This document shows, piece after piece, positions 8,879 through 64,000 of a DNA stretch of 64,000 nucleotides. The DNA comes from a bacterium (lineage in GTDB: Bacteria; NPL-UPA2; JAUVJM01). The stretch covers positions 2,207-66,206 of the forward strand of contig JAUWGW010000006.1 in assembly GCA_030606215.1 (NCBI GenBank), read 5' to 3'. Position 1 is the stretch's first letter, and the number at the start of each line of letters is the position of its first letter. A program made the translations under genes and the position numbers. Below the pieces are notes generated by a model that ran no database searches, was not told the origin of the DNA, and saw nothing but the letters and a program-made list of their open reading frames with translations.

Positions 8879-8895
8879 GAAAGGGGGAATCAGGA

Positions 8896-9528
8896 ATGTT
8901 AAAGAGGATGACTGACAAATTGCATGGTTTTACCCTCATAGAGTTACTTGTCGTAGTTGCCATAATTGCTGTCCTGGCGGCAATGCTTTTGCCAGCATTA
9001 AGCCAGGCAAGGGAGAAAGCAAGGCAGGCAAAATGCATCAGTAATTTGAGACAACTTGGCACTATACTTATTATGTATAGCATTGATCGTGGGGGATGGA
9101 TGGTACCCTGGTACGATGGTAGTAAAACCTGGACTAAGATATTAGACGATGAAAATTATGTTAGTAATACCTCTATTTACCTTTGTCCTTCCTATCCTCC
9201 CACGGAACACTCTTCACCTGTATACGCTTATGGGTATAATACAAAGGATCCGACAAAAGCTGATTTGGGTATAGGGGAAACTTATCGACTGGATACCGTG
9301 AGTTCTTCCAGCTCATACTTTATCCTGGCAGATAGTATAGAGATAGCCGTGAAAAAACAAACCTACTATATACCTAGTGGAAATACTAGGGAAATACATT
9401 GTCGGCACAACGGAATGGCAGATTTACTTTATGCAGATGGTCATGTAGAAATTGAGAGTCCTGAGGAAATAGATGCCGCCGATAATGGATACTACTTGGC
9501 TTGGGGCCACATATATGTGGGAGAGTAA
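8896..9528 (+). CDS. Prepilin-type N-terminal cleavage/methylation domain protein with C-terminal H-X9-DG domain (DUF1559-like)
   Basis: [45 protein letters not shown] is the classic type IV pilin-like N-terminus of this family. C-terminal [13 protein letters not shown] gives an H-X9-DG spacing. AAGGGGGA RBS. Confidence 0.7.
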
Positions 9529-9623
9529 AATTTAACATCGGACAGAGTGAAATTTAGCACTTAGTGTGGAATATTTCTGAAAAGGGGCAAAAACATGGAA
9601 ATGAAAGTAAAGGAGGGTTTGTC

Positions 9624-12374
9624 GTGCTTATAAAATCTGTATTGTTTGTTTGGTTAGCTCTTTGTTTTTCTTCTTTGGGTATCGCTGAAGAACAGGGGCT
9701 GGTAGCCTATTACGATTTTAACGAAGGCTCGGAGCTAATAGCACATGATAGGAGTGGAAATAAGAATGATGGGAAGATAATAGGAGCTACCTGGGTAAAG
9801 GGTAGATATGGCACTGCTTTAGAGTTTGATGGGATAAATGACTATGTTGACTGCGGGGAGAAACCAAGTTTTGATGTTAAAAATGTAGTTACCCTTGAGG
9901 CTTGGGTTTTACCTACGAAGGCCCCTTCTGGAGAACCAGCAATAGTAGGCAAAAAAATCTCCAGATATGCATTGACCTATTACAAAAATGGGAACTGTTA
10001 CTTCTATATATCTGCTGGTGTTAATCATTGTGTAGCTCGCCACCTTGCCGTTGGTGTTTGGCATCACATTGTAGCAACATTTGATGGAACAACAATGAAT
10101 CTGTACGTTGATGGAGATTTAAAGGACACTCGCACCTCACTTTACAAAACGATAGATAGTCGTGGTGGAAATCTTTTTATTGGCAAGCGGGATAACGATT
10201 ATTTCTGCGGCATAATTGACGAAGTTAGAATATATAATCGTACTTTATCCGAAGAAGAAATTCAAACCCATTATCAGTCAGATGCAAGAATGAAAAAAGC
10301 TGTAGTAAATAATAAAACCGGAACAGATACCATGACAAAATTCAGATATAGTCCTGATCAGAGAAGTGAACCCCTTCCACCCTGGCCGCCTGTAGAAGTG
10401 AGGAAGAGAAAAGTTATTGTATGGGGAAGAGAATACACCTTTTCTAATCTCCCTATCCCGGTCTCTATTATTTCTCAGGGGCAAGAGTTATTAGCTAGTT
10501 CTCCAAAGCTTGAAGTTCTGGTAGAGGGAAAACCGCTGGTATGGCAGCCAGTGCGAATTGAAAGAATTTCACCTGCGGTTGCCAAAGTAATTTCTCAGGG
10601 GAAAGCAGGAGACTTTCTAATTCAAGGAGAGAGCTTCGTTGAATTCGATGGGCTGGTCTGGGTTCAACTAAGGCTCAGTTGTACCCAGGAAAAGTTAGTC
10701 TCTATCAAAAATTTGAGCCTCAAAATTCCTCTGAAATCACCCCCAGTTCAGCTTTTTTCCCATCAGCTCGTTAGGACAGCTAATTTTCAAAGCTCGTTTC
10801 AGTTATTGACTACTCCAGAACAGTTCTATTACACTGGCGCATTGCCTCATGAAGGTTGGAAAGGAGAATTTACCCCACAGGTCTGGGTAGGAAATGTCGA
10901 TCGGGGACTGGCATGGATTAGTGAATCTCCACATTCATGGGAAATCGGTCATAAAGAAGCCGTATTGGAACTGATCCCAGACAGCAAAAAAGTGTGGCTG
11001 AACGTGACATTTGTATCAATTCCCATTAGATTGGAAAAGGAAAGGAATATAGAATTCGGACTAATGGCGACCCCTGTGAAACCTTGGCCAACTGATAGAT
11101 CTCTTTTGCGGGTATCCCATACTGGTGGGGGGGCTTTTGAAAAGCTCCGGGATACCTACATTATTCCGCGAAAGGAAGATGGAAAGACCGGACTTGACGA
11201 CTTTGCCAAGGAGGGGGTTCGTACGCTCGTCCTGTGGGACTACTACTCGGATGTCTGGGGGTTTCCAAAGATTGTCAGCTCTAAGAATAGAGAGTTTGCT
11301 AAGGCATTTGTACAGAAGGCACATAAGCTGGGTATTCGTGTCATGCCATATCAGGCTACGTTGCAGATCCTGCCCGAAAGACATCCTGAATTTGAGGAAC
11401 TCAAAAAGCGGTTTCAAGTTTATCCTCAGTGTGAAGAGAAGGGATATCACAAAGTTAAGCTAACAGATGACTTTATAATGTGGTATGCATCGCAAGCGGC
11501 AGCACATATGCGTGAATTTGACCTGGACGGTTACTACTTGGATACCTTTAATGACCCAGACCGTTTTAACCACAGTGATGTCGTAATGTATGATATACTG
11601 CAAACCCGAAAATTATACAAAGCCTTATATGAGATAGTTTACAAGGAAAAGGGTAAGCATGGCATTATTTTCCTTCATGATTCTGCACCGCCTCTATTTC
11701 CCCTGGCAAGTTTTTCTGACCTCCGCCTAACAGGTGAAATGCAATACTGGAGATTGGCTTTCCAGCACCTGACAAGAAGTAGCAATCCTTTGCTGCAGGC
11801 TATTCCACTTGAACAGATTCAGGTATGGGATATGGGGGAGGTTGTAGGGGTGCCAACGGTTTGGTGCTGGAAGCATCCCGACAAAGAGTATAGGGTGAGA
11901 ACCGGGTTGGATTTGCTAACATATAAGACTGGGGAGTTATTCGATACGGAGGAAGTGTTTAGCATTATGGGACTTTTTCACATACCAATTTTTGCTCGAC
12001 CTCTCTGGTGGCGATCCCCCAGCCCAGTGCCGAGAATGTCTCAGATATGGAAGCTGGAGGATGAATTTGGATTGCAGAATGCCAGATGGTACCCCTATTG
12101 GGAAAACGCAGGTCTCATTTCTGTCTCTCCCCCAGAAGTAAAAGTAAGCTTCTATCTCAAAGAAGACTGTTCATTACTAATGCATGTTGCTAATCTGGGA
12201 GAGAAGGAGAACATAACTCAGATTAAATTTACTAGCTCCTCCGGCCTGAAGAGCAAACGGTTTGAGATAATAAATGCTGTGGGAAGTTATCATGTTAGAG
12301 GAAGATTGGGGGGAGTGGAATTGAGATTACCTCCAGGTCAATCCACACTCTTGATGCTTCGGGTGAAGAAATAA
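9624..12374 (+). CDS. Secreted LamG/concanavalin-A-like lectin-domain protein with a large C-terminal domain of uncertain function (possibly glycoside-hydrolase-like TIM barrel)
   Basis: About 916 aa. GTG at 9624 has AAGGAGGG 7 nt upstream and yields a signal-peptide-like N-terminus (LIKSVLFVWLALCFSSLGIA). The LamG_3-like segment is GLVAYYDFNEGSELIAHDRSGNKNDGKIIGATWVKGRYGTALEFDGINDYVDCG...LYVDGDL. The track's ATG at 9564 is an alternative start. Confidence 0.55.
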   Translation: MLIKSVLFVWLALCFSSLGIAEEQGLVAYYDFNEGSELIAHDRSGNKNDGKIIGATWVKGRYGTALEFDGINDYVDCGEKPSFDVKNVVTLEAWVLPTKAPSGEPAIVGKKISRYALTYYKNGNCYFYISAGVNHCVARHLAVGVWHHIVATFDGTTMNLYVDGDLKDTRTSLYKTIDSRGGNLFIGKRDNDYFCGIIDEVRIYNRTLSEEEIQTHYQSDARMKKAVVNNKTGTDTMTKFRYSPDQRSEPLPPWPPVEVRKRKVIVWGREYTFSNLPIPVSIISQGQELLASSPKLEVLVEGKPLVWQPVRIERISPAVAKVISQGKAGDFLIQGESFVEFDGLVWVQLRLSCTQEKLVSIKNLSLKIPLKSPPVQLFSHQLVRTANFQSSFQLLTTPEQFYYTGALPHEGWKGEFTPQVWVGNVDRGLAWISESPHSWEIGHKEAVLELIPDSKKVWLNVTFVSIPIRLEKERNIEFGLMATPVKPWPTDRSLLRVSHTGGGAFEKLRDTYIIPRKEDGKTGLDDFAKEGVRTLVLWDYYSDVWGFPKIVSSKNREFAKAFVQKAHKLGIRVMPYQATLQILPERHPEFEELKKRFQVYPQCEEKGYHKVKLTDDFIMWYASQAAAHMREFDLDGYYLDTFNDPDRFNHSDVVMYDILQTRKLYKALYEIVYKEKGKHGIIFLHDSAPPLFPLASFSDLRLTGEMQYWRLAFQHLTRSSNPLLQAIPLEQIQVWDMGEVVGVPTVWCWKHPDKEYRVRTGLDLLTYKTGELFDTEEVFSIMGLFHIPIFARPLWWRSPSPVPRMSQIWKLEDEFGLQNARWYPYWENAGLISVSPPEVKVSFYLKEDCSLLMHVANLGEKENITQIKFTSSSGLKSKRFEIINAVGSYHVRGRLGGVELRLPPGQSTLLMLRVKK

Positions 12375-45719: not shown

Positions 45720-46949
45720 TCAGTAAACTTTCTCGCGTAGTCTGCGCGCCCGGAGAGAAAGTCCGCTCTGGATAAGCACTCCTGTAAGCACCACCGCTGA
45801 GCAAAACCAATATACAGTAGCCATTGAGTATCTCTGATAGATTATTCCGCCGATAGAGGAGCCGCAAATAAGACCGGCAGCAATAAGCGACTCGTGTATA
45901 GCCATACGTTTTGGTCTATCCGTGCTTCCAGATACACCGTGAAAAAGGCTGTACGTGTAGCCTAAGGCCATTAACAGTCCTATCCCTCCCAAAATGAGCC
46001 CCAATAATAAAGGTGAATGAGTATAAACCATCAAGATCAATAAAATTGCAAGAGATACCTGTCCCAAAAGCATCGGTAAACTTCTAAAGTGCCAGAAAGT
46101 TGTTCTCCCCAGCATGATAAAACCGGAAGTTGTAAATAGAGCGCGTGATAAGAATAACAGACCGATGACACTTTTCCTCATAAATAAATCAGCCCTCGCA
46201 GAGACAGGGAAAATGTTGAGTATTACACCCATTATAACATAGGTAGTATAAAGACCGACCCACGCTGGATAACGAACTAGTGTATCCTGCCCTTTTTCAA
46301 GACTCCGCCTTTCAAGCGGTAATTTAGTGTCTCTGTCCTTCCGGATACGCGGCAGTGAGAGGATTGCCCCGATAATCATGAAACTGGTTAAGAGAAAGAG
46401 TGCGCTGCCGGCATAAATTGGCAGTTCTGTCCCCTTTTCGCTCAAGTATCCTGCCAGAAAAGGACCGATTATCATTCCTGCACTCCAGGAAAAGTTAAAC
46501 TTAGATATTGTCTTACTCAGTTCAATCCCTTCAACCTTCTGTGAGAGCCAGCCCATTAGAGGTGGCCAGAAAAGAGAAGTCGAAAAACCGTACAAGCCGT
46601 AGAATATGTAGACCCAGATGAGTGAGTCAGAACTGTGTATTGCAAGAGTAAAAACACACATACAGGATGTGGCTATTACCAGAGTATACCGTGGCAGAAT
46701 ATGGTCAAAAAGCGGGCGTATGAATATGCAGCCTGAAATAAAACAGAGTGACCAAAATGCAACGAGGAGTCCGATCTGGCTTCCGGATGCATTGAAAATA
46801 TCGCGCATATAAAAGACTATTCCAAGGGATACCAATCCTGCGCCAACAGCTGCGAGAAAGGCCGATGAAAAAATGACCGTTGTTTTCCCAATACCAGTGT
46901 AGAATGACCTTATCAACTGGCGTCGTTGACTAATATATCGCGGTTTCAA
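45720..46949 (-). CDS. MFS-type transporter
   Basis: 409 aa. About 12 hydrophobic helices in two halves. The loop motif G..SD...RPK... after TM2 is like the MFS signature. Substrate unknown. Confidence 0.55.
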   Translation of the reverse strand: MKPRYISQRRQLIRSFYTGIGKTTVIFSSAFLAAVGAGLVSLGIVFYMRDIFNASGSQIGLLVAFWSLCFISGCIFIRPLFDHILPRYTLVIATSCMCVFTLAIHSSDSLIWVYIFYGLYGFSTSLFWPPLMGWLSQKVEGIELSKTISKFNFSWSAGMIIGPFLAGYLSEKGTELPIYAGSALFLLTSFMIIGAILSLPRIRKDRDTKLPLERRSLEKGQDTLVRYPAWVGLYTTYVIMGVILNIFPVSARADLFMRKSVIGLLFLSRALFTTSGFIMLGRTTFWHFRSLPMLLGQVSLAILLILMVYTHSPLLLGLILGGIGLLMALGYTYSLFHGVSGSTDRPKRMAIHESLIAAGLICGSSIGGIIYQRYSMATVYWFCSAVVLTGVLIQSGLSLRARRLREKVY

Positions 46950-47170
46950 AATAGATGTACACTCTCCTTTCCACTTCGGTTATGGGTCTTATTTTACAGT
47001 GCATTAAACCGAAAAACAATGGCTAAATAAGAAAGCGACAGGAGAAAGAAGTGAAGAAGTGAATGTGATTGACAGCACACTATCGAAGCTGTTATCATTG
47101 AAATGTTTGGGGCATAAAAAAATATGTACAGTGGGGTCAATAATCCTTTACAAAACACAAATGGAGGCAC

Positions 47171-47644
47171 ATGAGAAAAATTCGGATCTATGTTGATACT
47201 TCTGTGATTGGAGGTTGTTGTGATCCTGAATTTGAAGAATGGTCTGAAGGGCTCCTTTCAGATTTCAAAGTAGGCATATTCTCTTTAGTTCTCTCTTCGG
47301 TTACAGATGCAGAGATTGAAGATGGCCCCGAAGAAGTTAAAAAAGTATATCAGGAGTTTAAGGATTGCGAGCATGAATTTCTTGACCTGGACCCTGAAGC
47401 AATAGAACTTGCTGAGGTATACCTGAGACATGGTATTTTATCCTCAAATTATAGAGATGATGCCCGGCATATTGCTATGGCAACTGTGGCAGGTGTAGAT
47501 ATATTGGTAAGCTGGAACTTTCACCATATTGTGCATTTTGACAAAATTCGGCAATTCAATGCAGTCAATCTTGAGAAAGGTTATAGAACAATATCAATCC
47601 ATTCGCCAAGGGAGGTGACAACCCATGCCAGTGAAAGCAGTTGA
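47171..47644 (+). CDS. PIN-domain protein (VapC-like putative toxin/RNase)
   Basis: 157 aa. IRIYVDTSVIGG (first acidic residue), DARHIAMATVAGVDILVSWNFHHIV (PIN C-terminal D...H.A.A motif). GGAGG RBS. Confidence 0.6.
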   Translation: MRKIRIYVDTSVIGGCCDPEFEEWSEGLLSDFKVGIFSLVLSSVTDAEIEDGPEEVKKVYQEFKDCEHEFLDLDPEAIELAEVYLRHGILSSNYRDDARHIAMATVAGVDILVSWNFHHIVHFDKIRQFNAVNLEKGYRTISIHSPREVTTHASESS

Positions 47645-47792
47645 GATGGTTAGAAAGATACGCGATAAGCACTATGCAGAGACAAAAGACTTATCAGCAG
47701 GGGAACAATTGGAATATATACGGAGGAAAGCTGAGAGACTATCCCGAGATTTCCAGGGCAGTCAGCATTCGGCAGCCGGCAAGGTAAGGTAG
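47625..47792 (+). CDS. Small ORF (55 aa) overlapping the 3' end of the PIN gene; possible cognate partner (antitoxin-like), hypothetical
   Basis: ATG at 47625 with GGAGGTG 7 nt upstream. It encodes MPVKAVEMVRKIRDKHYAETKDLSAGEQLEYIRRKAERLSRDFQGSQHSAAGKVR, a basic/helical sequence. Overlaps the PIN ORF by 20 nt in a different frame. Confidence 0.3.
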   Translation: MPVKAVEMVRKIRDKHYAETKDLSAGEQLEYIRRKAERLSRDFQGSQHSAAGKVR

Positions 47793-47869
47793 AGAACTGT
47801 CCATGGCTACTCTATAGCAGCCATTTCGTCTTTGGACCCCAAAAGCGAAATAATATGCTAAAATAACCC

Positions 47870-48003
47870 ATGGAAATGCCAAAAATAAAGTCCAAATTGG
47901 TCCATGCCCTCTTGGACTGCATCCCCATCACCGAAGTCCAAAAACAAGTCGGCCACAAAAGATTGGCAACCACCCAGATTTACTCTAATCTTGCACCAGA
48001 GTA
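47870..48003 (+). pseudogene. Tyrosine recombinase/integrase C-terminal relic (5'-truncated and frameshifted)
   Basis: Frame A (from 47870) gives ...SKLVHALLDCIPITEVQ, similar to R-H-T-F-A-T-H-L-L-E-x-G-x-D-L-x-x-I-Q. Frame B (from about 47941) gives KQVGHKRLATTQIYSNLAPE*, similar to LLGH..L.TTQIYTH with the catalytic Tyr. The two halves are in different frames. A stop lies immediately upstream of 47870. Confidence 0.45.
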
Positions 48004-48031
48004 GGTTAGGGAAGCGTATGAAAAATGATAG

Positions 48032-48418
48032 ATGAAAGGGAGAAAAATGAAAAAGTACAATAAAATAATGGACGTTTCTATTCCCATTCTTTATTTGGGG
48101 ATATGGCTCGCGTTTGTATTTTTTTGTAAACGTTCCGGCTTTTTTGATGCCATAGACGCAACCTCCTTCTTAATTGTCTCATTTCTTGTTATGTTTTTCA
48201 GTATGATAACGAAATCCACCTCGTGGGGAATTGGAAATAAGTTCTTTAATATCAAAGGTAGTTCGGAAAGGCACATAGAGTATAGTTGGCATGAAAACTG
48301 GGAAAATGGTAAGCAAAAAAGTGGCTACACAATCACAATTGACCATGATAATCCTGAGGTAATTAAGCAATTAATGACCCACCACCATTGCTTGGTTAGT
48401 AATAGAGAAGACAACTAG
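48032..48418 (+). CDS. Hypothetical small membrane protein (2 TM)
   Basis: 128 aa. Two hydrophobic helices, then a hydrophilic C-terminus. No recognisable family. Confidence 0.35.
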   Translation: MKGRKMKKYNKIMDVSIPILYLGIWLAFVFFCKRSGFFDAIDATSFLIVSFLVMFFSMITKSTSWGIGNKFFNIKGSSERHIEYSWHENWENGKQKSGYTITIDHDNPEVIKQLMTHHHCLVSNREDN

Positions 48419-48698
48419 AAAATGAACCTTGAGTTTAATTGTCCATATTGCAATAAGGTACTCGTAGGTAAACTCCCTACCAAAAGCGCAGAAAAACCTC
48501 ACCTTCAGAGCCCCAATTTCTATGTCCCAAAATCGCCTTCTAATTCACATTTTTGCTAATTTCAGCAAAATAAACTTGCAAGTTTTTAGTTTTTATGTTT
48601 TAAATGGGGACAAGTGATAAGATATCCCATTATATTTTAGCGGAAATAATTTCCGAAACATCAGAAATGAAAAAGCTTTGAAATTGAGGGGGGGAGAG

Positions 48699-49238
48699 AT
48701 GGAGGTAAGAATTAATCATTCAAAACTTGAACTTAAGGAAGGGGATATTACAGAGGCCGACACCGAAGCAGTTGTGAATGCGGCAAACAGGAGTCTTCTT
48801 GGAGGCGGTGGGGTTGATGGTGCAATTCACCGCGTGGGAGGTCCAGAAATTCTTGAAGAATGCAGGAAACTTGGTGGCTGTGAAACAGGTGATGCAAAGA
48901 TTACAACCGGAGGGAATCTCAAAGCAAAATGTGTGATTCATACTGTTGGTCCGGTTTATCAAGGTGGAGGAAAGGGCGAAGCAGAATTACTTGCAAGCTG
49001 CTACCGCAGGAGTCTTGATGCTGCAAGAGAAAATGGTATAAAGAGTGTTTCTTTCCCGTCAATAAGCACAGGGGCGTATCGGTATCCTATGGAGGAAGCC
49101 GCTAAAATTGCTCTCAGGACTGTTACAGATTATCTGAAGAAACACCAGGAAGTTGAACTTGTCCGTTTTGTTCTATACGGCAAGTCAGCCTATGATACAT
49201 ATTCACAAGCGCTCGCTGCACTCACCGAAAACACCTGA
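48699..49238 (+). CDS. Macro-domain protein (MacroD/Af1521-type ADP-ribose-binding or processing)
   Basis: About 179 aa from ATG 48699 (GGGGGGAGAG RBS). DITEADTEAVVNAANRSLLGGGGVDGAIHRVGGPEILEEC...KITTGGNLKAKCVIHTVGPVY is the canonical macro-domain core. Confidence 0.8.
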   Translation: MEVRINHSKLELKEGDITEADTEAVVNAANRSLLGGGGVDGAIHRVGGPEILEECRKLGGCETGDAKITTGGNLKAKCVIHTVGPVYQGGGKGEAELLASCYRRSLDAARENGIKSVSFPSISTGAYRYPMEEAAKIALRTVTDYLKKHQEVELVRFVLYGKSAYDTYSQALAALTENT

Positions 49239-49320
49239 AGGTACACCTCCACCCTTCCTTCCCCCTCTAAATCCTCTCGCCGAATAGTTTTGTCCCGATA
49301 CGGACTATATTAGCTCCTTC

Positions 49321-49977
49321 TTACTCTTTCCTGAACAGCGGTATTAAAAAGAGTCCTGCGAAAAATCCGCCAATGTGAGCTAACCATGCGACATTTGTCT
49401 GATGCAAAGAGTAAGCGTTTATGAACTGCAGGATAATCCATAAACTCAGGATAATGAGAGCAGGTATTTCTACAAGCCGTATAAAGAAACCAAAAGTGAT
49501 AAGCGTAAGTATTTTGGCTTTTGGGGAAAGAATGAGATAAGCTCCAAGCACACCTGATATTGCGCCGCTTGCTCCTACCAGGGGAATTATTGATTCGGGA
49601 CTACTTCCTATATGAACAATACTTGCGACTACACCACATATTAAATAGAAAAAGATAAAACGCAAATGCCCGACTCTGTCTTCAACATTCCTGCCAAAGA
49701 TCCAGAGATAAAGCATATTCCCAATAATGTGAAGGAGCCCGCCATGAAGGAACATTGATGACAGAAGTGTCAGTTGAACCGGGTGTCCAAGTAGCGGGGG
49801 CTTATCCACTCCGTGTGAGATTTCATAGGGAATCGCTCCGGCCTGCATGATAAGTTCTTCCCTTGCTTCCGGCTCCAGGGAGAGTTGATACATAAAAACA
49901 GCTATATTTATGAGAATAATTAAGATGGTAACAAATGGGAATGTCTCTGTAGGAATATTGTCTTTTAGCGGAATCAT
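49321..49977 (-). CDS. Rhomboid-family intramembrane serine protease
   Basis: 218 aa. HGGLLHIIGNMLYLWIFG...GASGAISGVLGAYL (catalytic Ser in GxSG) ... catalytic H in AHIGGFFAG. About 6 TM. Confidence 0.8.
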   Translation of the reverse strand: MIPLKDNIPTETFPFVTILIILINIAVFMYQLSLEPEAREELIMQAGAIPYEISHGVDKPPLLGHPVQLTLLSSMFLHGGLLHIIGNMLYLWIFGRNVEDRVGHLRFIFFYLICGVVASIVHIGSSPESIIPLVGASGAISGVLGAYLILSPKAKILTLITFGFFIRLVEIPALIILSLWIILQFINAYSLHQTNVAWLAHIGGFFAGLFLIPLFRKE

Positions 49978-55148: not shown

Positions 55149-56465
55149 CTATTTTGGCGCCATACAAAAATCTTTTGCTTTCGCCAGGTCTTCGGGTATC
55201 AAAAATCTTACAGTTGTTCGTTCAATAGCACGCTCACCTCGGAGTGCTAAATTTAAGCAATAAGCTTTGTCAGGTTTATATGTGCCAATGAAACTCCTAA
55301 GGGATTTGCTTATCTTGAATTCTCTTAAATCAACAGCTTTGACTTCAAAAGGAATGGGTTTGAGACTTGGAATCACAAAGTCTACTTCTGCGCCAGCCTT
55401 GGTCCGCCAAAAGTTTATGGGACTTGAATACTTCAAGCGCTCGCCCAAACAAAGGTAGGAGAAATTCTCAAAAAGGCTGCCCTTATCAGGGCGAAATTCG
55501 AAATCCCCAAAGCTTCCGATAGCAAAATTTCTTATACCGTGGTCACGAAAATAAACCTTAGGGCTTTTCAAGAGTTCTTTCCTGGGATTTCTATGAAAAG
55601 GTTTTACAAAATCCAGGATAAAGGTTTGTTCCAAATAAAACAGGTAGTGTTCTAGTGTATTCTTATGGATACTCAAAGTGTTGGAGAGCTCATGCTTATT
55701 TACCAGATTTCCTATTTGCGAAGAAAGAATCTTAACAAGGTTGCGGAATGCCTCTTCGTTTTCGATGTTAAGAAAAGACTTGATATCCTTCTCGATGTAA
55801 CTTTGGAATATCTCTTTGAGAAGCTGCAGTTTTAAATCTTCTTCCTTGGCCAGAGCAACTGCAGGGTATCCTCCATATGTGACATAATGATTCAAAACTC
55901 TTCTAAAGTCCTCTTTTTTCTCTATGACTTCATTGACACTCTTCCTTGGGAATAGGGCCTGAGAAAGTTCTTCCAGGTTGAAAGGATTAAGACGAAAAAC
56001 TACCTTTCTTCCAGTAAGAGCTTCATGAATTTTGCTTCTAATCTCCAGTGAACTTGAACCTGAGACTATCAGTTTAGCTGGTAGGTGAAGATCATAAATA
56101 CCTTTTAGAAATAAACCCGGTTCCTTTAAACGTTGAACTTCATCAATCAACACGTAGGACTTCCTTTTTGATTTGATTATTAAATCAACCAAATAATCCG
56201 GATTATCAAAAAACTGAAGCTGATGAGGAACATCAAGGTTAAAATAGTATATGTTGTCAGTCTTCGGGAGAAGGGCATCGTTTATTAACTGATAAAGGAG
56301 AACACTTTTTCCGGTTTGGTGAGCACCAGTAACAATAATTATTTCTTCTCTCTCAATCCATGGTGCTATTTTCTCTTTTATCTTACGCTGAACTACCTGG
56401 GGTGGCAGCTTTACCCCAAGCCTTTCCAACTCCTTTTTCTTTTTGCTATATCTCATTTTTGCCAT
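55149..56465 (-). CDS. AAA+-type ATP-binding protein with C-terminal DUF4143-like domain
   Basis: 438 aa. Walker A IIIVTGAHQTGKSVLLYQL and Walker B LIDEVQRL. The C-terminal region is typical of the ATPase+DUF4143 family often found next to R-M and defence genes. Confidence 0.7.
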   Translation of the reverse strand: MAKMRYSKKKKELERLGVKLPPQVVQRKIKEKIAPWIEREEIIIVTGAHQTGKSVLLYQLINDALLPKTDNIYYFNLDVPHQLQFFDNPDYLVDLIIKSKRKSYVLIDEVQRLKEPGLFLKGIYDLHLPAKLIVSGSSSLEIRSKIHEALTGRKVVFRLNPFNLEELSQALFPRKSVNEVIEKKEDFRRVLNHYVTYGGYPAVALAKEEDLKLQLLKEIFQSYIEKDIKSFLNIENEEAFRNLVKILSSQIGNLVNKHELSNTLSIHKNTLEHYLFYLEQTFILDFVKPFHRNPRKELLKSPKVYFRDHGIRNFAIGSFGDFEFRPDKGSLFENFSYLCLGERLKYSSPINFWRTKAGAEVDFVIPSLKPIPFEVKAVDLREFKISKSLRSFIGTYKPDKAYCLNLALRGERAIERTTVRFLIPEDLAKAKDFCMAPK

Positions 56466-56589
56466 GATGCAACTCCCTCACTATTTGCACATGTACTTTT
56501 AGCAAGGTTATTATAACATAGCAAAATAGTTAGTCAAGTACTTCTTGCCTTATCACGGAAATCCAGTTTGGTGTTCCTGCCCTTCCGTC

Positions 56590-56700
56590 GTTTAGACCTT
56601 GAGTCGTTTGTGAGGCGTTTATTAGGCATTTTAGGCATTTATTAGGCGTTTGAGCCCTTTGTGAGCCTTTCATGATTCCTTTGAGTCCTTTCAATCAAAT
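56590..56700. repeat. Low-complexity region with ~10-bp periodic T-rich motifs (cgtttattaggc / atttattaggc / ctttgtgagc / ctttgagtcc)
   Basis: Read directly. It lies in the 430-bp intergenic region between the hsdS 3' end and the ATPase 5' end. It is not a CRISPR (no spacers; unit about 10 bp). Confidence 0.3.
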
Positions 56701-56895
56701 ATTTTTGTCCGATATCTGTCCATTATTTGTCCTTTATCATTCATTCATAAGCTCGTTGCTGCAAGAATATATAACCTTTTTCCTATTTTGCGCAGGGGAC
56801 AGCCTGTTTTCTCCCTCCAGTTACGCCTTTGAATGGTATTTCTTGAAATTCCCAGGATCTCTGATATTTGTTCAACAGTTAAAATATCTTTACAC

Positions 56896-57732
56896 TCATA
56901 CTCTGACTTTTCCACTTAATAATACCTGCGTCAAACCTTTCTTGATATCTTCCAATCTTTCCTCATGAACAATTTCCTTATTTATTTCTTCATCAACAGA
57001 TGACAAAATTTCAGCAATCTTTTCCTGTTCGGCAAGAGTGGGAAGAGGAATTTTTGTCTTCTTAAACTTCTTATGGCCGATTCCGCGGGTCAGCAATTCC
57101 TGCATCAACCCCCTTTTTAGCTCTTTCGTCTTTTCTATGATCTCCTTCCTTTTCTCAATTGCCTCATCTACGGTTGATAGGATCTTGGCGATCTTTTTTT
57201 GTTCGGGCAGAGGTGGAAGGGGTATTACAATTCTCTCAATGCTTTTTCCACTAACATTAGGCTGTGCTCCGCCGGCAGCATCTATGAGCAAATCTTCTTT
57301 GAACCTTTTCGTCAACACTACCTGTCCTAAATATCTCTTTGCAATACGGTTTGAATCTTCAATCATAAATCTGCCAACACGTTGGTTAAGCAATGCTGGT
57401 AGGTCTTTCTTTGAAACAACCCCTATTTTTCCGGTTGTTGCACCGGACATAGCAACAAGTACATCCCCATCTTCAAGCAGAAAATCACTAAATTCCTTAG
57501 CAAAAGAGGCTGGAAGATATACACATTCATTTAACATAATCCCACTAGAGGTTACATTTGATATTCTGACTAAAGGCACACCTCTTCCTTTATAATCGCT
57601 ACTTTCAAAAGCGAATCCTCCCTGGAGACGTACTGTTTCCCCAAGATTGACAATTTCCCAATCCACTGGAATCTCGCCAATCTCCGTTTTCTTAAATTTG
57701 TCTTCGGTTCTTAAGCTATCTGCTTGTACCAC
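56896..57732 (-). CDS. hsdS: Type I restriction-modification specificity subunit, single-TRD (half-size) form
   Basis: 278 aa. One variable target-recognition domain followed by the conserved helical spacer, IPLPPLPEQKKIAKILSTVDEAIEKRKEIIEKTKELKRGLMQELLTRGI. A second conserved repeat (IPLPTLAEQEKIAEILSSVDEEI...) follows and the protein ends without a second TRD. Confidence 0.8.
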   Translation of the reverse strand: MVQADSLRTEDKFKKTEIGEIPVDWEIVNLGETVRLQGGFAFESSDYKGRGVPLVRISNVTSSGIMLNECVYLPASFAKEFSDFLLEDGDVLVAMSGATTGKIGVVSKKDLPALLNQRVGRFMIEDSNRIAKRYLGQVVLTKRFKEDLLIDAAGGAQPNVSGKSIERIVIPLPPLPEQKKIAKILSTVDEAIEKRKEIIEKTKELKRGLMQELLTRGIGHKKFKKTKIPLPTLAEQEKIAEILSSVDEEINKEIVHEERLEDIKKGLTQVLLSGKVRV

Positions 57733-58768
57733 TTTTGGCTCCCAAGACCCTGGTTATAAAGTTCTGGAATTCTTTCTCATATTTTTCAGCAGTAATATTG
57801 ATGTACGGAGCAGGAGGTAAGTCAAGACCGCTTGCCAAAAATCCAATACTGATTCCCTCCATCGCCTGACGCAGCTTTGAACTCCTCATATAATCTGACC
57901 CGGTTTTTTGAATATCGGCTAAGACATTCCACACATCTGTCAGCGCAGCGTAGAGTGAAATCCAATCAACCCAAAGCGGCTTTTTCGCATCTTCGTATTC
58001 CATTCCACAGAGAAATTCCCACCACCTTTTCTCTGGCAGCCAATACTCTATCTTCCGTTTACCTTTAATGCGCGTAAGCACTAAACCTGATTCTGCAAGT
58101 TCAATCAATGCATCCTGTGTTCCCCGAACAGACAGGCCGATTGCCTTAGCTACTTCGGAAGGATGTCCTGCGCCGTAGACTAAAAGATACAAAATACATT
58201 CAGAGCGTGAACCTATACCAAACATTGCTCTCAACAGAAAACGGATGGTGTTTCCTGCCATGACCGGTACGGGCTTCGACGTTTTCCGCACCGTAAAACT
58301 TTCGCGCAAAAATCCGTATTCTTTGAATATGTTTGATTCCGTAACCGGTTTTGGGTAGGGCTTTCCTTCTTTCGTTTTGAAAAGCATTTCGTCCTGCGTA
58401 CTTGTTTTAGCTCTATGGAGCAATGCTAAAGTCTTCCATTTACGCTGGTATGTTCCTGCCTCGCGCGACAGAAAACAAGCAACCGCGCTCATAAGTCGTT
58501 GCGTTCTTTCATCTTTCTGTTTCATAATTCCGCGCAGGCGCTGAATATCAATCCACTTTCCGTTTACAACAAGCCAGTCGAGTATCTCATCAAAGAAGCG
58601 TGGCTCGTACCGACCCATTTCCAGTGAAAAGAGAAGGAGAGCTTCCAGATCGATCGCCCATTCATGCTTTGAGCGCGCACCACCTGCTACACCCAGGGCA
58701 GACCACTGCCCCCAGAGAAAATCTAAAACTTCCTTCAGAAAGAATTCCCTAAAGTTTATCTGCGACAT
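57716..58768 (-). CDS. Hypothetical 350-aa protein with central winged-helix DNA-binding-like segment, embedded between hsdM and hsdS
   Basis: A wHTH-like segment ECILYLLVYGAGHPSEVAKAIGLSVRGTQDALIELAESGLVLTRIKGKRKIEYWL lies at about residues 200-255. No HEPN R-x4-6-H motif. Overlaps the upstream NTase gene by 20 nt. Confidence 0.5.
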   Translation of the reverse strand: MSQINFREFFLKEVLDFLWGQWSALGVAGGARSKHEWAIDLEALLLFSLEMGRYEPRFFDEILDWLVVNGKWIDIQRLRGIMKQKDERTQRLMSAVACFLSREAGTYQRKWKTLALLHRAKTSTQDEMLFKTKEGKPYPKPVTESNIFKEYGFLRESFTVRKTSKPVPVMAGNTIRFLLRAMFGIGSRSECILYLLVYGAGHPSEVAKAIGLSVRGTQDALIELAESGLVLTRIKGKRKIEYWLPEKRWWEFLCGMEYEDAKKPLWVDWISLYAALTDVWNVLADIQKTGSDYMRSSKLRQAMEGISIGFLASGLDLPPAPYINITAEKYEKEFQNFITRVLGAKSGTSR

Positions 58769-59354
58769 CTTTGTAACCTATTTCTTTAAGAAAATCCTTA
58801 AGGACTTTTCTGTAACCCTCGGAAATGTCATGTGTCATACTCCAACGAGCCGCTTTTTCTAATTCCTCTGCAATAGGTTTTAATGCAAGTAGGTCACCGT
58901 AATGAACATCACCTCTATCCCGATCTACTACAGCATAGAGCTTAAAATGAATCTGGTCATACCGGCTGAGAAAGTGAATTGTTAGATTCTTTCCATAAGT
59001 ACGGGTTTCCACCCTATCCATAAGACCGTCAGGCAATCCTAAATCCATAACAGACGCCGGTCCGGGATTAAGCCAGTTGTCGGTCAAATCAAAATCTTTC
59101 TGCACTCTCGTGGCTGCATCCTCAACTGCAGGATTCATAGGTTTGGTGGCTTTGACTAAAGTAATAGAGCCGTCACTCTTCTTATCTACAAATGCGACAA
59201 CATCCACGTCTTCGGTAACACGGCTCACGTACCCCAATATATTGAGAGCTGCCCCTCCGCACACAACCATTTCGCAGTGCATCACCCCCCGCACTTCCAG
59301 TTGCTCGGCGAGTGCTGTGAGTACAGATTCTATTTGTTGTTTGCCTTCAAACAT
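58749..59354 (-). CDS. AbiEii-like (DUF1814-type) nucleotidyltransferase-fold protein, short form; putative toxin-like NTase
   Basis: 201 aa. MVVCGGAALNILGYVSRVTEDVDVVAF fits the AbiEii/NTase-fold motif (GGTAL ... R.S.DIDh), i.e. a Gly-rich loop followed by a DxD acidic pair. It starts 3 nt after the hsdM stop. Confidence 0.5.
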   Translation of the reverse strand: MFEGKQQIESVLTALAEQLEVRGVMHCEMVVCGGAALNILGYVSRVTEDVDVVAFVDKKSDGSITLVKATKPMNPAVEDAATRVQKDFDLTDNWLNPGPASVMDLGLPDGLMDRVETRTYGKNLTIHFLSRYDQIHFKLYAVVDRDRGDVHYGDLLALKPIAEELEKAARWSMTHDISEGYRKVLKDFLKEIGYKDVADKL

Positions 59355-59356
59355 GC

Positions 59357-60844
59357 TTACACCCTATAACGCAATTCTCTTAAATAGCCTGACACCTTCC
59401 TATCAATATTTTTATATTCTTCCTTGAGTTTCTTCAGGTCATCGATAGTTTTCTGAATATCAATGTTCTCTTCTTGTTCTGTAACATCAATATATCGTGT
59501 GATGTTAAGGTTGTGGTCGTTCTCCCTTATTTCATTAATCCGTACAGGACGACAATACTTATCTATCGTGCTATATTCTCCAAAGGCTGATACAATTTTC
59601 TCAATGTCTTCTTTACGCAGCTTATTCTGCTTCTTTCCCTCTTGATAGTCGCCTGCACCGTAAAGGAAGAACGCCTTTCCTCTCCTCTCTTTAGGCTTGT
59701 CTCTGTTGATTATGAACAAGCACGCAGGAATGCCCGCGCCATAGAATAACTTAGGTGGCAAGCCTATGACGCCTTCAAGGAGGTCTTCTTCGACTATACC
59801 CTTTCTAATCTTTCCTTCTGCCCCTCCGCGGAATAAGACTCCATGCGGTAGGACAACACCGACTCTCCCTTTAGGGTTCGCAATAGCTATCATGTGCTGG
59901 ACAAATGCGTAGTCACCGTATCCCTTCGGAGGTATCCCGAACCTGAACCTTTTGTAGGGGTCATTCTGAGCATTTTCATAGCCCCAATTCTTGAGTGAAA
60001 AAGGCGGATTTGCTATTACAATATCAAATTGCATTAGTTGTCCCTTGGTGAGCAGCTTAGGTTCCCGTAAGGTATCAGCTCTCCGGATCTTTGCACTTTG
60101 TAATCCATGAAGGAGCAGATTCATCTTGCAGATTGCCCATGTCCCAACATTGATCTCCTGACCATACAGAGCAATGTTCTTAGGATTTTGCCCCTTTCCC
60201 TGTAAGTGGCACACGGATTGTATCAACATTCCACCTGAACCACACGCAGGGTCACAAATTCTCATTCCTTCTTTCGGATCCAGAATGTCTACTAATAGCT
60301 CAACAACCTCCTTGGGTGTATAGAACTCCCCTCCTTTCTTGCCAGCGCTTGAAGCAAATTGGGCGATAAGATATTCATATGCATCACCCAGGATATCGGG
60401 TTTCTCCAAATCTTCATTTCTCAACCTAATTTTGGAGAAGTGGTTGATAAGCTGGGAAAGTATATGGTCCGGCAGCCGGTCTTTATCGTTAAAGTCAACA
60501 GCAGAAAGAACGCCTTCCAGAGTTTCCGGGTTTTCTTCTTCCAAGGAGTCGTTTGCTTTGTTGATAGCTTCACCTATGTTCTGGGTCAGTGATTTAAGAT
60601 AATCCCATCGCGCCCTTTTGGGAACGAAAAAGTCGTGATAATCGCGGTCTTCATACGCAATCTTTTTGCTGCCTGTCTCATGTAGTATTCTCTCAACCTC
60701 TTCGTCAAACACGTCGGATAATCGCTTCAAAAACAAGAGCCCGAAAATGTAATTCTTGTAATCTGCGGCGTCAATATGACCCCGCAGAATGTCCGCGGAT
60801 GCCCAGAGGTGATACTTCAGGGCTTGCGAGTTTACCTTTTCCAT
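59357..60844 (-). CDS. hsdM: Type I restriction-modification DNA methyltransferase subunit (N6-adenine)
   Basis: 495 aa. N-terminal HsdM_N-like region, AdoMet motif I MRICDPACGSGGML and catalytic motif IV IVIANPPFS. AAGGAAAGG RBS. Confidence 0.9.
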   Translation of the reverse strand: MEKVNSQALKYHLWASADILRGHIDAADYKNYIFGLLFLKRLSDVFDEEVERILHETGSKKIAYEDRDYHDFFVPKRARWDYLKSLTQNIGEAINKANDSLEEENPETLEGVLSAVDFNDKDRLPDHILSQLINHFSKIRLRNEDLEKPDILGDAYEYLIAQFASSAGKKGGEFYTPKEVVELLVDILDPKEGMRICDPACGSGGMLIQSVCHLQGKGQNPKNIALYGQEINVGTWAICKMNLLLHGLQSAKIRRADTLREPKLLTKGQLMQFDIVIANPPFSLKNWGYENAQNDPYKRFRFGIPPKGYGDYAFVQHMIAIANPKGRVGVVLPHGVLFRGGAEGKIRKGIVEEDLLEGVIGLPPKLFYGAGIPACLFIINRDKPKERRGKAFFLYGAGDYQEGKKQNKLRKEDIEKIVSAFGEYSTIDKYCRPVRINEIRENDHNLNITRYIDVTEQEENIDIQKTIDDLKKLKEEYKNIDRKVSGYLRELRYRV

Positions 60845-60867
60845 GAGAGGTTCCTTTCCTTATGTGC

Positions 60868-60921
60868 TGTATATTTACTTACTACGTAAGTAAATATACA
60901 ACATGTTAGGAGAGTTGTCAA
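60868..60921 (-). promoter_or_regulatory. hsdM promoter (TTGACA-17nt-TATATT) with an overlapping perfect 15-3-15 inverted repeat (tgtatatttacttac-tac-gtaagtaaatataca), a putative operator
   Basis: On the minus strand: TTGACA (plus 60916-60921), a 17-nt spacer, TATATT (plus 60893-60898). The palindrome spans 60868-60900 and overlaps the -10 and the TSS. It ends 24 nt upstream of the hsdM ATG. Confidence 0.45.
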
Positions 60922-61313: not shown

Positions 61314-61403
61314 TGGCGGAGAGGCCGGGATTCGAACCCGGGGTGGAGTTGCCCCCACAACTGCTTAGCAGGCAGCTGCCTTCAACCGCTCGGCCACCTC
61401 TCC
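61314..61403 (-). tRNA. tRNA-Ser (anticodon GCU), class II with long variable arm
   Basis: Reverse complement is GGAGAGGTGGCCGAGCGGTTGAAGGCAGCTGCCTGCTAAGCAGTTGTGGGGGCAACTCCACCCCGGGTTCGAATCCCGGCCTCTCCGCCA. Perfect 7-bp acceptor stem, T-arm CCGGG-TTCGAAT-CCCGG, anticodon loop CU-GCU-AA, encoded CCA. Confidence 0.85.
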
Positions 61404-62599: not shown

Positions 62600-64000
62600 T
62601 CACATTTTCAGCCGCATAACTTTTCTTAAAAATTTCCCTGTGTAGGACTTGTCAACCCCGGCAACTTTTTCTGGCGTTCCTTCAGCTACAATCCAGCCGC
62701 CTTCATCCCCTCCTTCCGGGCCGAGGTCAATAATATAGTCGGCTGTTTTGATGACATCCAGATTGTGTTCAATAACGACAACAGTATTCCCTGCATCGGT
62801 AAGCCGCGCCAGCACATTCAGGAGTTTATCAATATCTGCAAAATGTAAGCCGGTTGTCGGCTCATCAAGGATGTAAAGTGTTTTCCCCGTGCTTTTCTTA
62901 CTGAGTTCTTTTGAAAGTTTCACTCTCTGCGCTTCACCTCCCGAGAGAGTTGTAGCTGATTGCCCAAGCTTTATGTAGCCCAGTCCGACATCGTAAACAG
63001 TCTGCAGTTTCTTCTTTATCTGGGGAATATTCTTGAAGAATTCAAGATTCTCCTCCACTGACATTTCAAGAACATCAGCAATATTTTTCCCTTTATAACG
63101 GATCTCAAGTGTTTCTCTGTTGTAACGCCTTCCTTTACACTCCTGGCATCTGACATAGACATCCGGGAGAAAATGCATTTCAATTTTTATGATACCACCT
63201 CCCTGGCAATTCTCGCATCTCCCCCCTTTCACATTAAAACTGAACCTGCCGGGTTTGTAACCGCGCATCCTTGCTTCAGGGACACGAGAGAGAAGCTGCC
63301 GTATGAAAGCAAATACTCCTGTATACGTAGCCGGGTTAGAGCGGGGGGTTCTCCCAATGGGGGACTGGTCTATCACTATAACCTTATCAATATGCTTAAC
63401 TCCCAGGAGACGATCGTGCTCACCGGGTTTAGCATGAGATTTGTATAAAATCTGGTTGAGGGCTTTGTGCAGGATTTCATCGATAAGTGTGCTTTTACCG
63501 GAACCTGATACTCCGGTAACACATGTAAGGACCCCTACCGGTATGCGCACATCAATATTTTTAAGATTGTTTTCCCTTGCTCCTTTTATAGTGATAAATT
63601 TAGCGCCAGTTGCTCTTCGCTTCTCGGGTATTCTAATGGAAAGTGCACCTTTTAGATATTTCCCTGTTAGAGACCTGCTGCATCTCAAAATCTCGGAGAG
63701 TTTGCCGCAGGCAACTACTTCGCCTCCACTCAACCCTGCTCCAGGTCCAAGGTCAATTATGTAGTCTGCACTGCGGATTGTCGTCTCATCATGTTCCACG
63801 ACAATAACTGTGTTTCCCAGATCCCTCAATTGACGCAGAGTCTTGAGGAGCCTGCGGTTATCTCGCTGATGAAGACCAATACTCGGCTCATCCAGTATGT
63901 AGAGAACTCCCGCAAGTCCTGAACCAATCTGTGTTGCCAGGCGAATACGTTCTGCTTCACCTCCGGAAAGTGTTCCTGCGGCTCTATCCAGCGTCAGATA
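62600..64000 (-). CDS. uvrA: Excinuclease ABC subunit A, C-terminal ~465 aa; 5' part lies beyond the window edge
   Basis: The minus frame is open to the window end. Zn-finger CxxC pairs (CENCQGGG...CQECKGRRY), Walker [11 protein letters not shown] and the ABC signature [12 protein letters not shown] are present. The revcomp of 63830-64000 continues ...[16 protein letters not shown]... The track's 63829 is an internal Met. Confidence 0.9.

Follow-up and report, generated by a model that had tools for sequence, protein, structure and literature searches.

Remnant of a one-domain Xer-like recombinase gene beside an orphan 29-bp site, probably left by a plasmid resolution or integration module

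We describe a small locus from a bacterium of the NPL-UPA2 lineage, contained in a stretch of 64,000 nucleotides (henceforth the window; assembly GCA_030606215.1, contig JAUWGW010000006.1, positions 2,207 to 66,206 of the forward strand; coordinates are positions in the window unless a relative is named). From left to right on the plus strand it comprises a PIN-like gene of 157 amino acids (aa) (47171–47644), the first gene of a toxin-antitoxin-like pair, an open reading frame (ORF) of 55 aa (47625–47792) that overlaps the PIN-like gene by 20 nucleotides (nt) and is its putative partner, an intact 29-bp core site (47823–47851) and, 48 nt further on, the 3′ remnant of a mini tyrosine recombinase gene (47900–48031). 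A Macro gene (48699–49238) lies beyond. A preliminary description of this DNA had correctly named the PIN-like and Macro genes as neighbours of the remnant.

The stretch flagged in that description is a single ORF of 44 codons (47870–48004, + strand; translation MEMPKIKSKLVHALLDCIPITEVQKQVGHKRLATTQIYSNLAPE*), in which codons derived from the leader of the gene have been accidentally fused to the remnant. It had been presented as two frameshifted halves of the C-terminal region of a tyrosine integrase that had lost some 300 N-terminal codons. A C-terminal remnant of a tyrosine recombinase (...KLVHALLDCIPITEVQKQVGHKRLATTQIYSNLAPE*) is indeed there, on the plus strand, but both motifs are read in the same frame, the parent was a one-domain mini-recombinase of ~190 aa rather than a phage-type integrase of 340 aa, and, such parents having ~180–200 codons, about 140 of them are gone. 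No gene is annotated at this ORF in the identical public Logan contig (2.9 kb) to which an exact-sequence look-up of the Macro protein with the shorter start led; for the longer Macro ORF, the PIN protein and the 44-aa ORF such look-ups returned nothing useful.

The resemblance to recombinases exceeds chance. In the profile search that had been proposed as a check, residues 18–42 of the 44-aa peptide aligned to positions 145–169 of the 172 of PF00589 (Phage_integrase), i.e. its last 25, with an E-value of 6.4e-4 and a score of 20 bits, below the gathering score of 27.1. A phmmer search of 5.8 billion proteins gave a best E-value of 2.5e-11, the closest proteins being 81–84% identical (E ~1e-10 to 1e-11). 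At the DNA level, positions 47900–48031 are 80–85% identical to the 3′ ends of intact genes (blastn against the fetched relative loci, designated here by L-numbers, as database proteins are by P-numbers; E ~1e-34). Since those intact genes score 102–105 bits against PF00589, the remnant descends from the tyrosine recombinase superfamily. The homology also continues beyond the stop of the ORF, where the window reads APE*VREAYEK* and its relatives APEQVREAYEKR: the TAG at 48002–48004 is a nonsense change of CAG, the TGA at 48026–48028 stands in place of AGA, and 48029–48031 is the ancestral stop.

The remnant thus delimited represents codons ~149–192, the last ~131 nt and the 3′ quarter of a gene of ~190 codons. 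Against its counterpart in L166 (84% nucleotide identity, 110/131) there are 17 synonymous-codon differences and four that alter the protein (R>C, A>E, Q>stop and R>stop), all four private to the window; this ratio indicates that most of the divergence accrued under selection and that inactivation is comparatively recent. Upstream, the site-adjacent leader and 5′ extremity of the gene have been retained (47852–47888, + strand, by alignment to L106 and L014), site and leader together being 83% identical to L106 (47823–47888) and 84% identical to L014 (47821–47881). Between the two preserved parts, piecewise alignment to L166, L106 and L146 places a deletion junction of 11 nt (47889–47899, + strand), at which ~426 bp are missing, namely codons ~6–148, with four active-site residues (R58, K85, H142 and R145) and a third copy of the site arm. 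Of the catalytic residues only the last His and the Tyr are left; the H-x-x-R of box II is not kept.

On these alignments the flagged stretch is what remains of an inactivated gene that encoded a one-domain Xer-like tyrosine recombinase of ~190 aa. One internal deletion of ~426 bp, which spared the upstream site and leader, was followed by two nonsense changes in what was left of the gene; the remnant itself is a case of ordinary gene decay. A split integrase of the SSV type (int-N and int-C at the ends of the element) was rejected because the loss is internal and the upstream site and leader are kept, and no N-terminal recombinase fragment was found elsewhere in the 64-kb window. A conserved micro-protein of 65 aa was likewise discarded: P0001 and P0003 run off the ends of their contigs, P0002 has lost an internal stretch and P0004 is truncated and follows an ATPase gene. 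Such an arrangement is seen in the near-identical contigs of metagenome-assembled genomes (MAGs) L002–L009, where a 378-aa AAA_16/ATPase_2 gene (e.g. L002 247–1581) ends 1 nt ahead of the ATG of a 65-aa recombinase C-terminal ORF, a different mode of truncation in the same gene family. The 5′ breakpoints of remnants cluster at codons ~126–149 (window, L012, P0002 and the L002 family), which may reflect ascertainment bias or a deletion hot spot. L154 (as oriented here) carries a full-length mini-recombinase gene (286–948) plus two extra 3′ fragments, of 58 bp (4209–4266) and 134 bp (5217–5350), the latter beginning at the same codon as the window remnant.

The family to which the dead gene belonged is known from metagenomes. 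A search of the databases with one intact member gave 306 relatives at E<=1e-20, all metagenomic and automatically named 'XerD', 'XerC' or 'integrase', and the best 120 of them were all 161–242 aa long; one close recombinase fragment bears the name Omnitrophota. In the fetched loci, intact genes encode 177–225 aa (183 aa in L011, ~195 aa in L013), with in-frame stops upstream. A scan of one genome per species gave four close copies only, at 69–80% identity (Aerophobetes, Nitrospirota, Armatimonadetes and an unclassified MAG), the remaining matches being at most 49% identical and mostly ordinary XerC/XerD-type genes at ~40–45%. Nothing above 34% identity to the family was present among the PLSDB plasmids. 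Truncated, frameshifted and internally deleted copies are common, the setting is among Rep and Par genes, and one 18.7-kb contig (L106/L112) holds two recombinase copies.

PF00589 spans nearly the whole of the intact proteins (E ~1e-29 to 5e-30), and R58, K85, H142, R145, H168 and Y177 are invariant in an alignment of 44 sequences. The best solved relative is XerA of Pyrococcus (4a8e, E 7e-26), matched over its residues 95–275 only; likewise, the NCBIfam profile recomb_XerA_Arch is matched over positions 82–263 only, with 157 bits against a cut-off of 220, while XerC and XerD reach 100 bits (cut-off 335) and 95 bits (cut-off 330). An AlphaFold model of an intact member (mean pLDDT 70) is confident for residues 26–145 and predicts residues 1–25 as disordered; its top Foldseek matches were XerA (5hxy, 4a8e), IntI4 and the C-terminal domain of XerD. 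Because the matches are restricted to the catalytic part of XerA and the proteins measure 161–242 aa, we conclude that the family is Xer-like and consists of the catalytic domain only, without a core-binding domain. Simple tyrosine recombinases have been classified as having a core-binding and a catalytic domain (PMC8138268), and we found no published description of this family in searches of the literature on core-binding-less tyrosine recombinases, on the arm sequences or on recombinases of Omnitrophota plasmids. A weak precomputed match to PF22823 (MrpR_C_cat) is recorded for family members. Five members (L094, L120, L126, L131 and L154) have an N-terminal insert, ...NCSGSIHRT(I/S)KN..., directly after a T-Q-K-R-N motif that coincides with the third arm copy. 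On L182, two one-domain recombinases (175 and 182 aa) flank a methyltransferase gene (8381–10549), and a 29-bp site is recognisable for the second of them only, 58 nt upstream of its start.

The site of the window consists of a left arm, ATTTCGTCTTT (47823–47833), a spacer, GGACCCC (47834–47840), and a right arm, AAAAGCGAAAT (47841–47851). It scores 34.2 bits with the position weight matrix (PWM) built for the family site, as against at most 13.3 bits in 20 shuffles, and is the sole such site in 64 kb; its spacer is identical to that of the L106 element. The consensus is an 11-bp arm, ATTTCGYCTTW, a variable 7-bp spacer and an 11-bp arm, WAAWGCGAAAT. This 11+7+11 bp architecture holds in 89 of 104 sites, the spacer being free in sequence and the arms conserved, with a constant asymmetry (a mismatch) at arm position 8. 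Downstream of 23 sites, at a distance of 61–73 nt, the right arm is repeated once more in direct orientation; this third copy falls within the 5′ coding end of the gene and is translated as T-Q-K-R-N.

Site and gene go together. Scanning metagenome contigs by the site pattern alone yielded 86 loci; the viral contigs scanned with it gave no match. Of 91 site occurrences, 30 share their locus with a match to a family recombinase, and a mini-recombinase ORF begins 20–61 nt downstream of the site in 15 loci. Conversely, intact genes found by protein have a site ~58 nt upstream (L011 and the 36-kb element L182–L184); in L013, too, a site precedes the gene, whose unclear start codon leaves the distance uncertain. 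The motif also precedes decayed copies: in L012 it separates a two-gene module from a recombinase remnant, and in L014 a frameshifted recombinase copy follows it. Most recombinase-bearing contigs show one site per 13–20 kb, and many sites are at contig ends. By its geometry this is a putative crossover site of the dif/lox/FRT type with an accessory arm.

Several arrangements of these sites deserve mention in their own right. Thirty-seven sites share the spacer GGGTCAC, the many that were aligned having strongly conserved flanks of ~70 nt; many lie at contig ends. In L115, two direct 29-bp sites with different spacers (178–204 and 5622–5648) bracket a four-gene sugar ABC-transporter operon. Direct sites, again with different spacers, bracket units of 2.3–3.7 kb in L101, L138 and L156 that encode a second one-domain recombinase (175 aa), 26–29% identical to the main family. 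The contig L107 (SDBS01308331.1, 1–1286) has identical ends of 123 nt, equivalent to a circle of 1,163 bp or a tandem repeat, and contains one 29-bp site (666–692) along with two ORFs, one HigA-like with a helix-turn-helix (148–633) and one for a membrane protein of 96 aa. Either an excised module circle or a fault of assembly could explain it.

Both the site and the remnant lie within an insertion. In the relative L180, whose MFS gene is 80% identical to that of the window, the Macro and MFS genes are adjacent and divergent, separated by a spacer of 197 bp, with a rhomboid gene beyond. Homology to L180 stops at ~47042 and resumes at ~48612, and because MFS and Macro are adjacent in L180, the 1.57 kb between (47043–48611) constitute an insertion to which the remnant is internal. 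The preliminary description had proposed a decayed mobile-element boundary; the DNA does derive from a mobile element, but the remnant sits in the middle of the insertion rather than at an edge. Macro and rhomboid are 79% identical in aa between window and L180, and MFS orthologues at 71% identity carry the name Omnitrophota; together with the close recombinase fragment so named, they make this phylum the probable source of the window.

Other features of the insertion are a promoter-like site upstream of the PIN-like gene (TTGACA-18-TATCAT with an extended TG, 47069–47098, + strand; 11/12, a consensus match only), a predicted membrane ORF of 128 aa (48032–48418, + strand; called as 123 aa from 48047 in L001), for which there was neither a Pfam or NCBIfam match nor a homologue in the fetched loci, and an ORF of 45 codons (48422–48559). 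The latter overlaps the right end of the insertion, whose last ~140 nt (48463–48603, + strand) match L108, L163 and L154 at 72–82% by blastn; in the ORF maps these matches immediately precede a conserved ~350-aa gene carried by mini-recombinase elements. With parts that match plasmid-like elements, the insertion is, by homology, horizontally acquired DNA derived from a mobile element or plasmid. A similar small chromosomal scar exists in L012, where AbiEii, a site and a recombinase remnant lie between gyrB and gyrA. In L180, an Ala_racemase_N (YggS-type) gene (1303–1968) is located between rhomboid and Macro, where the window has only 82 bp (49238 to 49321).

The PIN-like protein (weak PF01850 match, E 0.0047) and its partner have relatives in the same position elsewhere. 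The segment formed by the PIN pair and the site (47167–47851, + strand) is shared with L091 (93.7% over 686 nt by blastn) and L092 (90.2% over 685 nt), and in all three contexts the homology stops exactly at the right end of the site. The PIN-like protein is 94% identical in L092 and L091, and homologues occur directly upstream of a site and an intact recombinase in L146 (55%), L131 (51%) and L094 (32%). The 55-aa ORF gave no match to any Pfam or NCBIfam family and is conserved together with the PIN gene (91% in L091, 80% in L092 and 59% over 32 aa in L146). Other modules abut the left of the site: AbiEii in L012, a pair of 145 and 127 aa in L014 and L108, and the HigA-like ORF in L107. An integron-like cassette was also considered for the PIN module and rejected, as it has no site at its left boundary.

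What precedes the sites resembles the backbone of plasmids. In L092 the PIN pair comes after an RPA-type RepA, a ParA and a small ORF, the RepA resting on an unmarked precomputed RPA match. L120, L126, L163 and L112 have a ParA (AAA_31, E 2e-57), a ribbon-helix-helix (RHH) protein and a ~390-aa protein resembling RepA (RPA E 0.009), then the site and the recombinase. L182 is a plasmid-like or phage-plasmid-like contig of 36 kb with DnaB, ParA, Rep_O and HU. By gene order the layout is that of a plasmid maintenance region: replication, partition and addiction, then the site with its recombinase.

Putting these observations together, we consider that the locus is probably a decayed plasmid resolution or integration module, its recombinase dead and its site orphaned, within a plasmid-derived insertion. 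In the intact elements, by analogy with Xer/dif, Cre/loxP and TnpI/IRS, the recombinase would bind the two arms and exchange strands across the 7-bp spacer, and the third arm, with a site placed over the leader of the gene, may provide accessory binding, control of directionality and autoregulation, as in TnpI/IRS. Because ParA, RHH, RepA-like and toxin-antitoxin-like genes precede site and gene, and because there is one site per 13–20 kb, the most likely role would be the resolution of plasmid multimers, perhaps also integration. The system of the window should no longer work in cis; what is left would be an apparently intact gene pair in addiction layout and an orphan site, which might still be usable if a matching recombinase came in trans.

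Several points weigh against this interpretation. The polarity of the event, insertion here as opposed to loss in L180, rests on one relative, and the closer relative L179 (MFS 87% identical) has yet another sequence after window position 47026 (L179 1–125). With three sequences in three relatives, the spacer between MFS and Macro looks like a variable spot and a hot spot of insertion. Only one site is present in the window, flanking repeats are absent, and the position of the site within the insertion means that the block did not enter by a simple crossover at 47823–47851. At the left edge of the PIN module homology (~47167) there is no site in the available sequence of the window, L091 or L092 (at most 4 mismatches, or PWM >=16 bits). 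No circular contig with replication genes, site and recombinase was found by the terminal-overlap test, so that the word plasmid rests on gene content. A tyrosine recombinase of this kind, lacking the core-binding domain, might require a partner, and the neighbourhood of the gene shows no conserved one. Finally, the evidence fits resolution and integration alike.

Some of the same facts suit another scenario, in which mini-recombinases and sites shuttle modules such as toxin-antitoxin pairs or transporter operons between plasmids and chromosomes, the window holding a captured PIN module and an orphan landing site. It would account for the presence of PIN pair and site at 90–94% identity in three contexts that are otherwise unrelated, the homology breaking off at the site each time, for the different two-gene modules to the left of sites (L012, L014, L108; also the HigA-like ORF of L107), for the direct pairs around the ABC operon of L115 and around the second-recombinase units of L101, L138 and L156, and for the frequency of sites at contig ends, as is expected of repeats; L107 might even be a 1.16-kb circle of one ORF and its site. 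However, the PIN module is without a left-hand site in all three contexts, the bracketing pairs differ in spacer, which normally bars recombination between them, most recombinase contigs have one site in 13–20 kb, and the terminal overlap of L107 could be artefactual. We regard module exchange as unlikely, though not negligible.

The position of the inverted repeat, 20–61 nt ahead of the start codon of the recombinase and ~30 nt past the stop of the 55-aa ORF, also invites the idea that it is no crossover site at all, acting instead as an operator or 5′-leader structure of the recombinase gene or as a hairpin at the transcript end of the upstream pair. A hairpin can be folded from it in each of four contexts, and one change is compensatory. 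Yet the stem is conserved in sequence across phyla while the 7-nt 'loop' is fixed in length and free in sequence, the mismatch at arm position 8 is itself conserved, and the third, direct arm copy is unable to pair. There is neither a T-run at the site nor a terminator-like call, and no Rfam match was obtained (46900–48700). The six invariant catalytic residues, which set the family apart from MrpR, are a further argument, and we judge an exclusively regulatory repeat improbable. Operator and crossover roles are in any case compatible, as in TnpI of Tn4430 and Tn5401.

Could the mini-protein instead be an atypical relaxase with the tyrosine recombinase fold, and the inverted repeat its oriT? 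There is precedent in MpsA of SGI1 and TcpM of pCW3, and the plasmid-like context would suit it: MpsA is a relaxase of this fold with an oriT containing inverted repeats near its gene, and a small separate protein supplies its core-binding-like part (PMC6414798). In sequence and fold, however, the family is nearest to genuine Xer recombinases (~30% identity), the site has the exact crossover geometry of two arms and a 7-bp spacer, and no MpsB-like partner, coupling protein or type IV secretion genes were present among the inspected loci. This makes a relaxase quite improbable.

The preliminary description had read the remnant as consistent with an eroded integrative island, attached at tRNA-Ser. 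The tRNA-Ser(gct) exists, at 61314–61403, 13.3 kb from the remnant, so that recombinase remnant and tRNA gene do fall within the same 15 kb, and of the genes in between (rhomboid, ExbB/ExbD, TPR, histidine phosphatase, an AAA_14/DUF4143 ATPase and the S subunit of a type I restriction-modification system) the last two lie beside the tRNA. Against this, the insertion measures just 1.57 kb with both edges mapped, ending at ~48611, and the rhomboid and Macro genes to its right are syntenic in L180. The direct repeat of the tRNA 3′ end that was to define the attachment sites was not found, only the tRNA itself matching TGGCGGAGAGGCCGGGATTCGAAC within the window at up to 3 mismatches, and there are no long direct repeats in 40–64 kb and no shift in composition. 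Moreover, the parent family has its own 29-bp site, which is no tRNA. The island is thus highly improbable. As candidate duplicated island ends, the 409-aa ORFs at 45720–46949 and 62600–63829 were dismissed, being unrelated to each other. The ATPase (55149–56465), the S subunit (56896–57732) and more ORFs up to 60844 lie near the tRNA, and this region (55149–60844) may be a small defence islet of its own, with no link to the remnant; an inverted repeat of 29 nt with a 3-nt loop (60854–60914, 83% complementary) occurs between a 495-aa ORF and tRNA-Ser.

Chance similarity over 20–40 aa, or a functional micro-protein of 44 aa, might be suggested by the Pfam score under the gathering threshold and by the 65-aa C-terminal ORFs annotated in several MAGs, but it is almost certainly wrong in view of 80–85% identity over ~131 nt to many intact genes, homology that runs through two stop codons, an ORF left uncalled in the identical contig, and annotated ORFs that are cut at contig ends (P0001, P0003) or are copies from near-identical loci (P0004).

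Returning to the decayed module as the preferred interpretation, its significance lies in the family behind it, a large clade known only from metagenomes that has the catalytic domain alone, keeps every catalytic residue and is paired with a defined 29-bp site. How such enzymes recognise and synapse DNA could be studied on a compact model in a natural enzyme that has a known site but no core-binding domain, and the mini-recombinase is a candidate small tool for genome engineering. Annotators of Omnitrophota-like genomes should bear in mind that a short 'XerC/XerD' call beside a toxin-antitoxin pair can be the scar of a plasmid maintenance module and need not be an island border. We give a low but real probability to the broader view that recombinases and 29-bp sites form a self-contained system with which plasmids in Omnitrophota and further uncultivated phyla would dock into chromosomes and exchange modules such as toxin-antitoxin pairs and transporter operons, the orphan site of the window being a live landing pad; if true, this would be a counterpart of pdif modules and integrons that brings its own minimal enzyme.

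Among known systems, archaeal XerA/dif comes closest. It provides the best match in sequence, profile and fold, the RKHRH-Y set is complete in both, and both combine one recombinase with a short site made of two 11-bp inverted arms and a spacer of 6–8 bp. XerS/difSL and XerH/difH are single-recombinase Xer systems with the site directly beside the gene, as here. Unlike XerA, the family here has no N-terminal core-binding domain and misses all curated cut-offs; it is found on plasmid-like elements in multiple, often decayed copies and not as a single housekeeping copy acting at a site in the terminus region of the chromosome; and its site has a 7-bp spacer and a third arm copy within the gene. 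To our knowledge, its arm sequence is unrelated to published dif sites.

In organisation the closest parallels are Cre/loxP of P1, ResD/rfsF of F and TnpI/IRS of Tn4430 and Tn5401, all with their own site immediately ahead of the gene; the placement within a cluster of replication, partition and toxin-antitoxin maintenance genes would be a further likeness. The IRS, composed of IR1-IR2 plus DR1-DR2, further shares the combination of a core inverted repeat with an extra direct arm copy. No specific sequence relation to these recombinases is detectable beyond the common catalytic fold, and Cre, ResD and TnpI are two-domain proteins of 268–343 aa, whereas the family described here has one domain. 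FimB and FimE invertases are of similar size, being among the few tyrosine recombinases of ~200 aa (NCBIfam profile length 200), and their profile is weakly matched, at 27 bits against a cut-off of 221, but there is no inverted pair of sites around a short invertible segment, the sole inverted pair being 9 kb apart (L147).

Two systems of module movement offer further comparisons. Integrons likewise have a recombinase next to its primary site and cassette-like modules adjacent, and IntI4 is among the fold matches. On the other hand, the integrase_gron profile reaches 79 bits against a cut-off of 265, in a match of two pieces; there are no attC arrays (one site in the window); gene and modules are co-directional; and the core is symmetric and of the double-strand type, not a bulged, folded attC. 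For the pdif modules of Acinetobacter, published accounts describe toxin-antitoxin pairs and other genes bounded by dif-like sites in varied plasmid and chromosome contexts (e.g. PMC6449649, PMC13141974). The PIN pair with its site, recurring in three contexts, is reminiscent of them, but a pdif module has a site on each flank, in opposite orientation, and depends on the XerC/XerD of the host, while here only one flank carries a site and the element encodes a one-domain recombinase of its own. Lastly, MrpR, the repressor of SPbeta, and the relaxases MpsA and TcpM illustrate how the catalytic-domain fold has been re-used for DNA binding or nicking. MpsA, of ~320 aa, needs MpsB (PMC6414798), and MrpR has lost most of its catalytic residues and keeps its core-binding domain (PMC10516654); the mini-recombinase family, in contrast to MrpR, keeps every catalytic residue.

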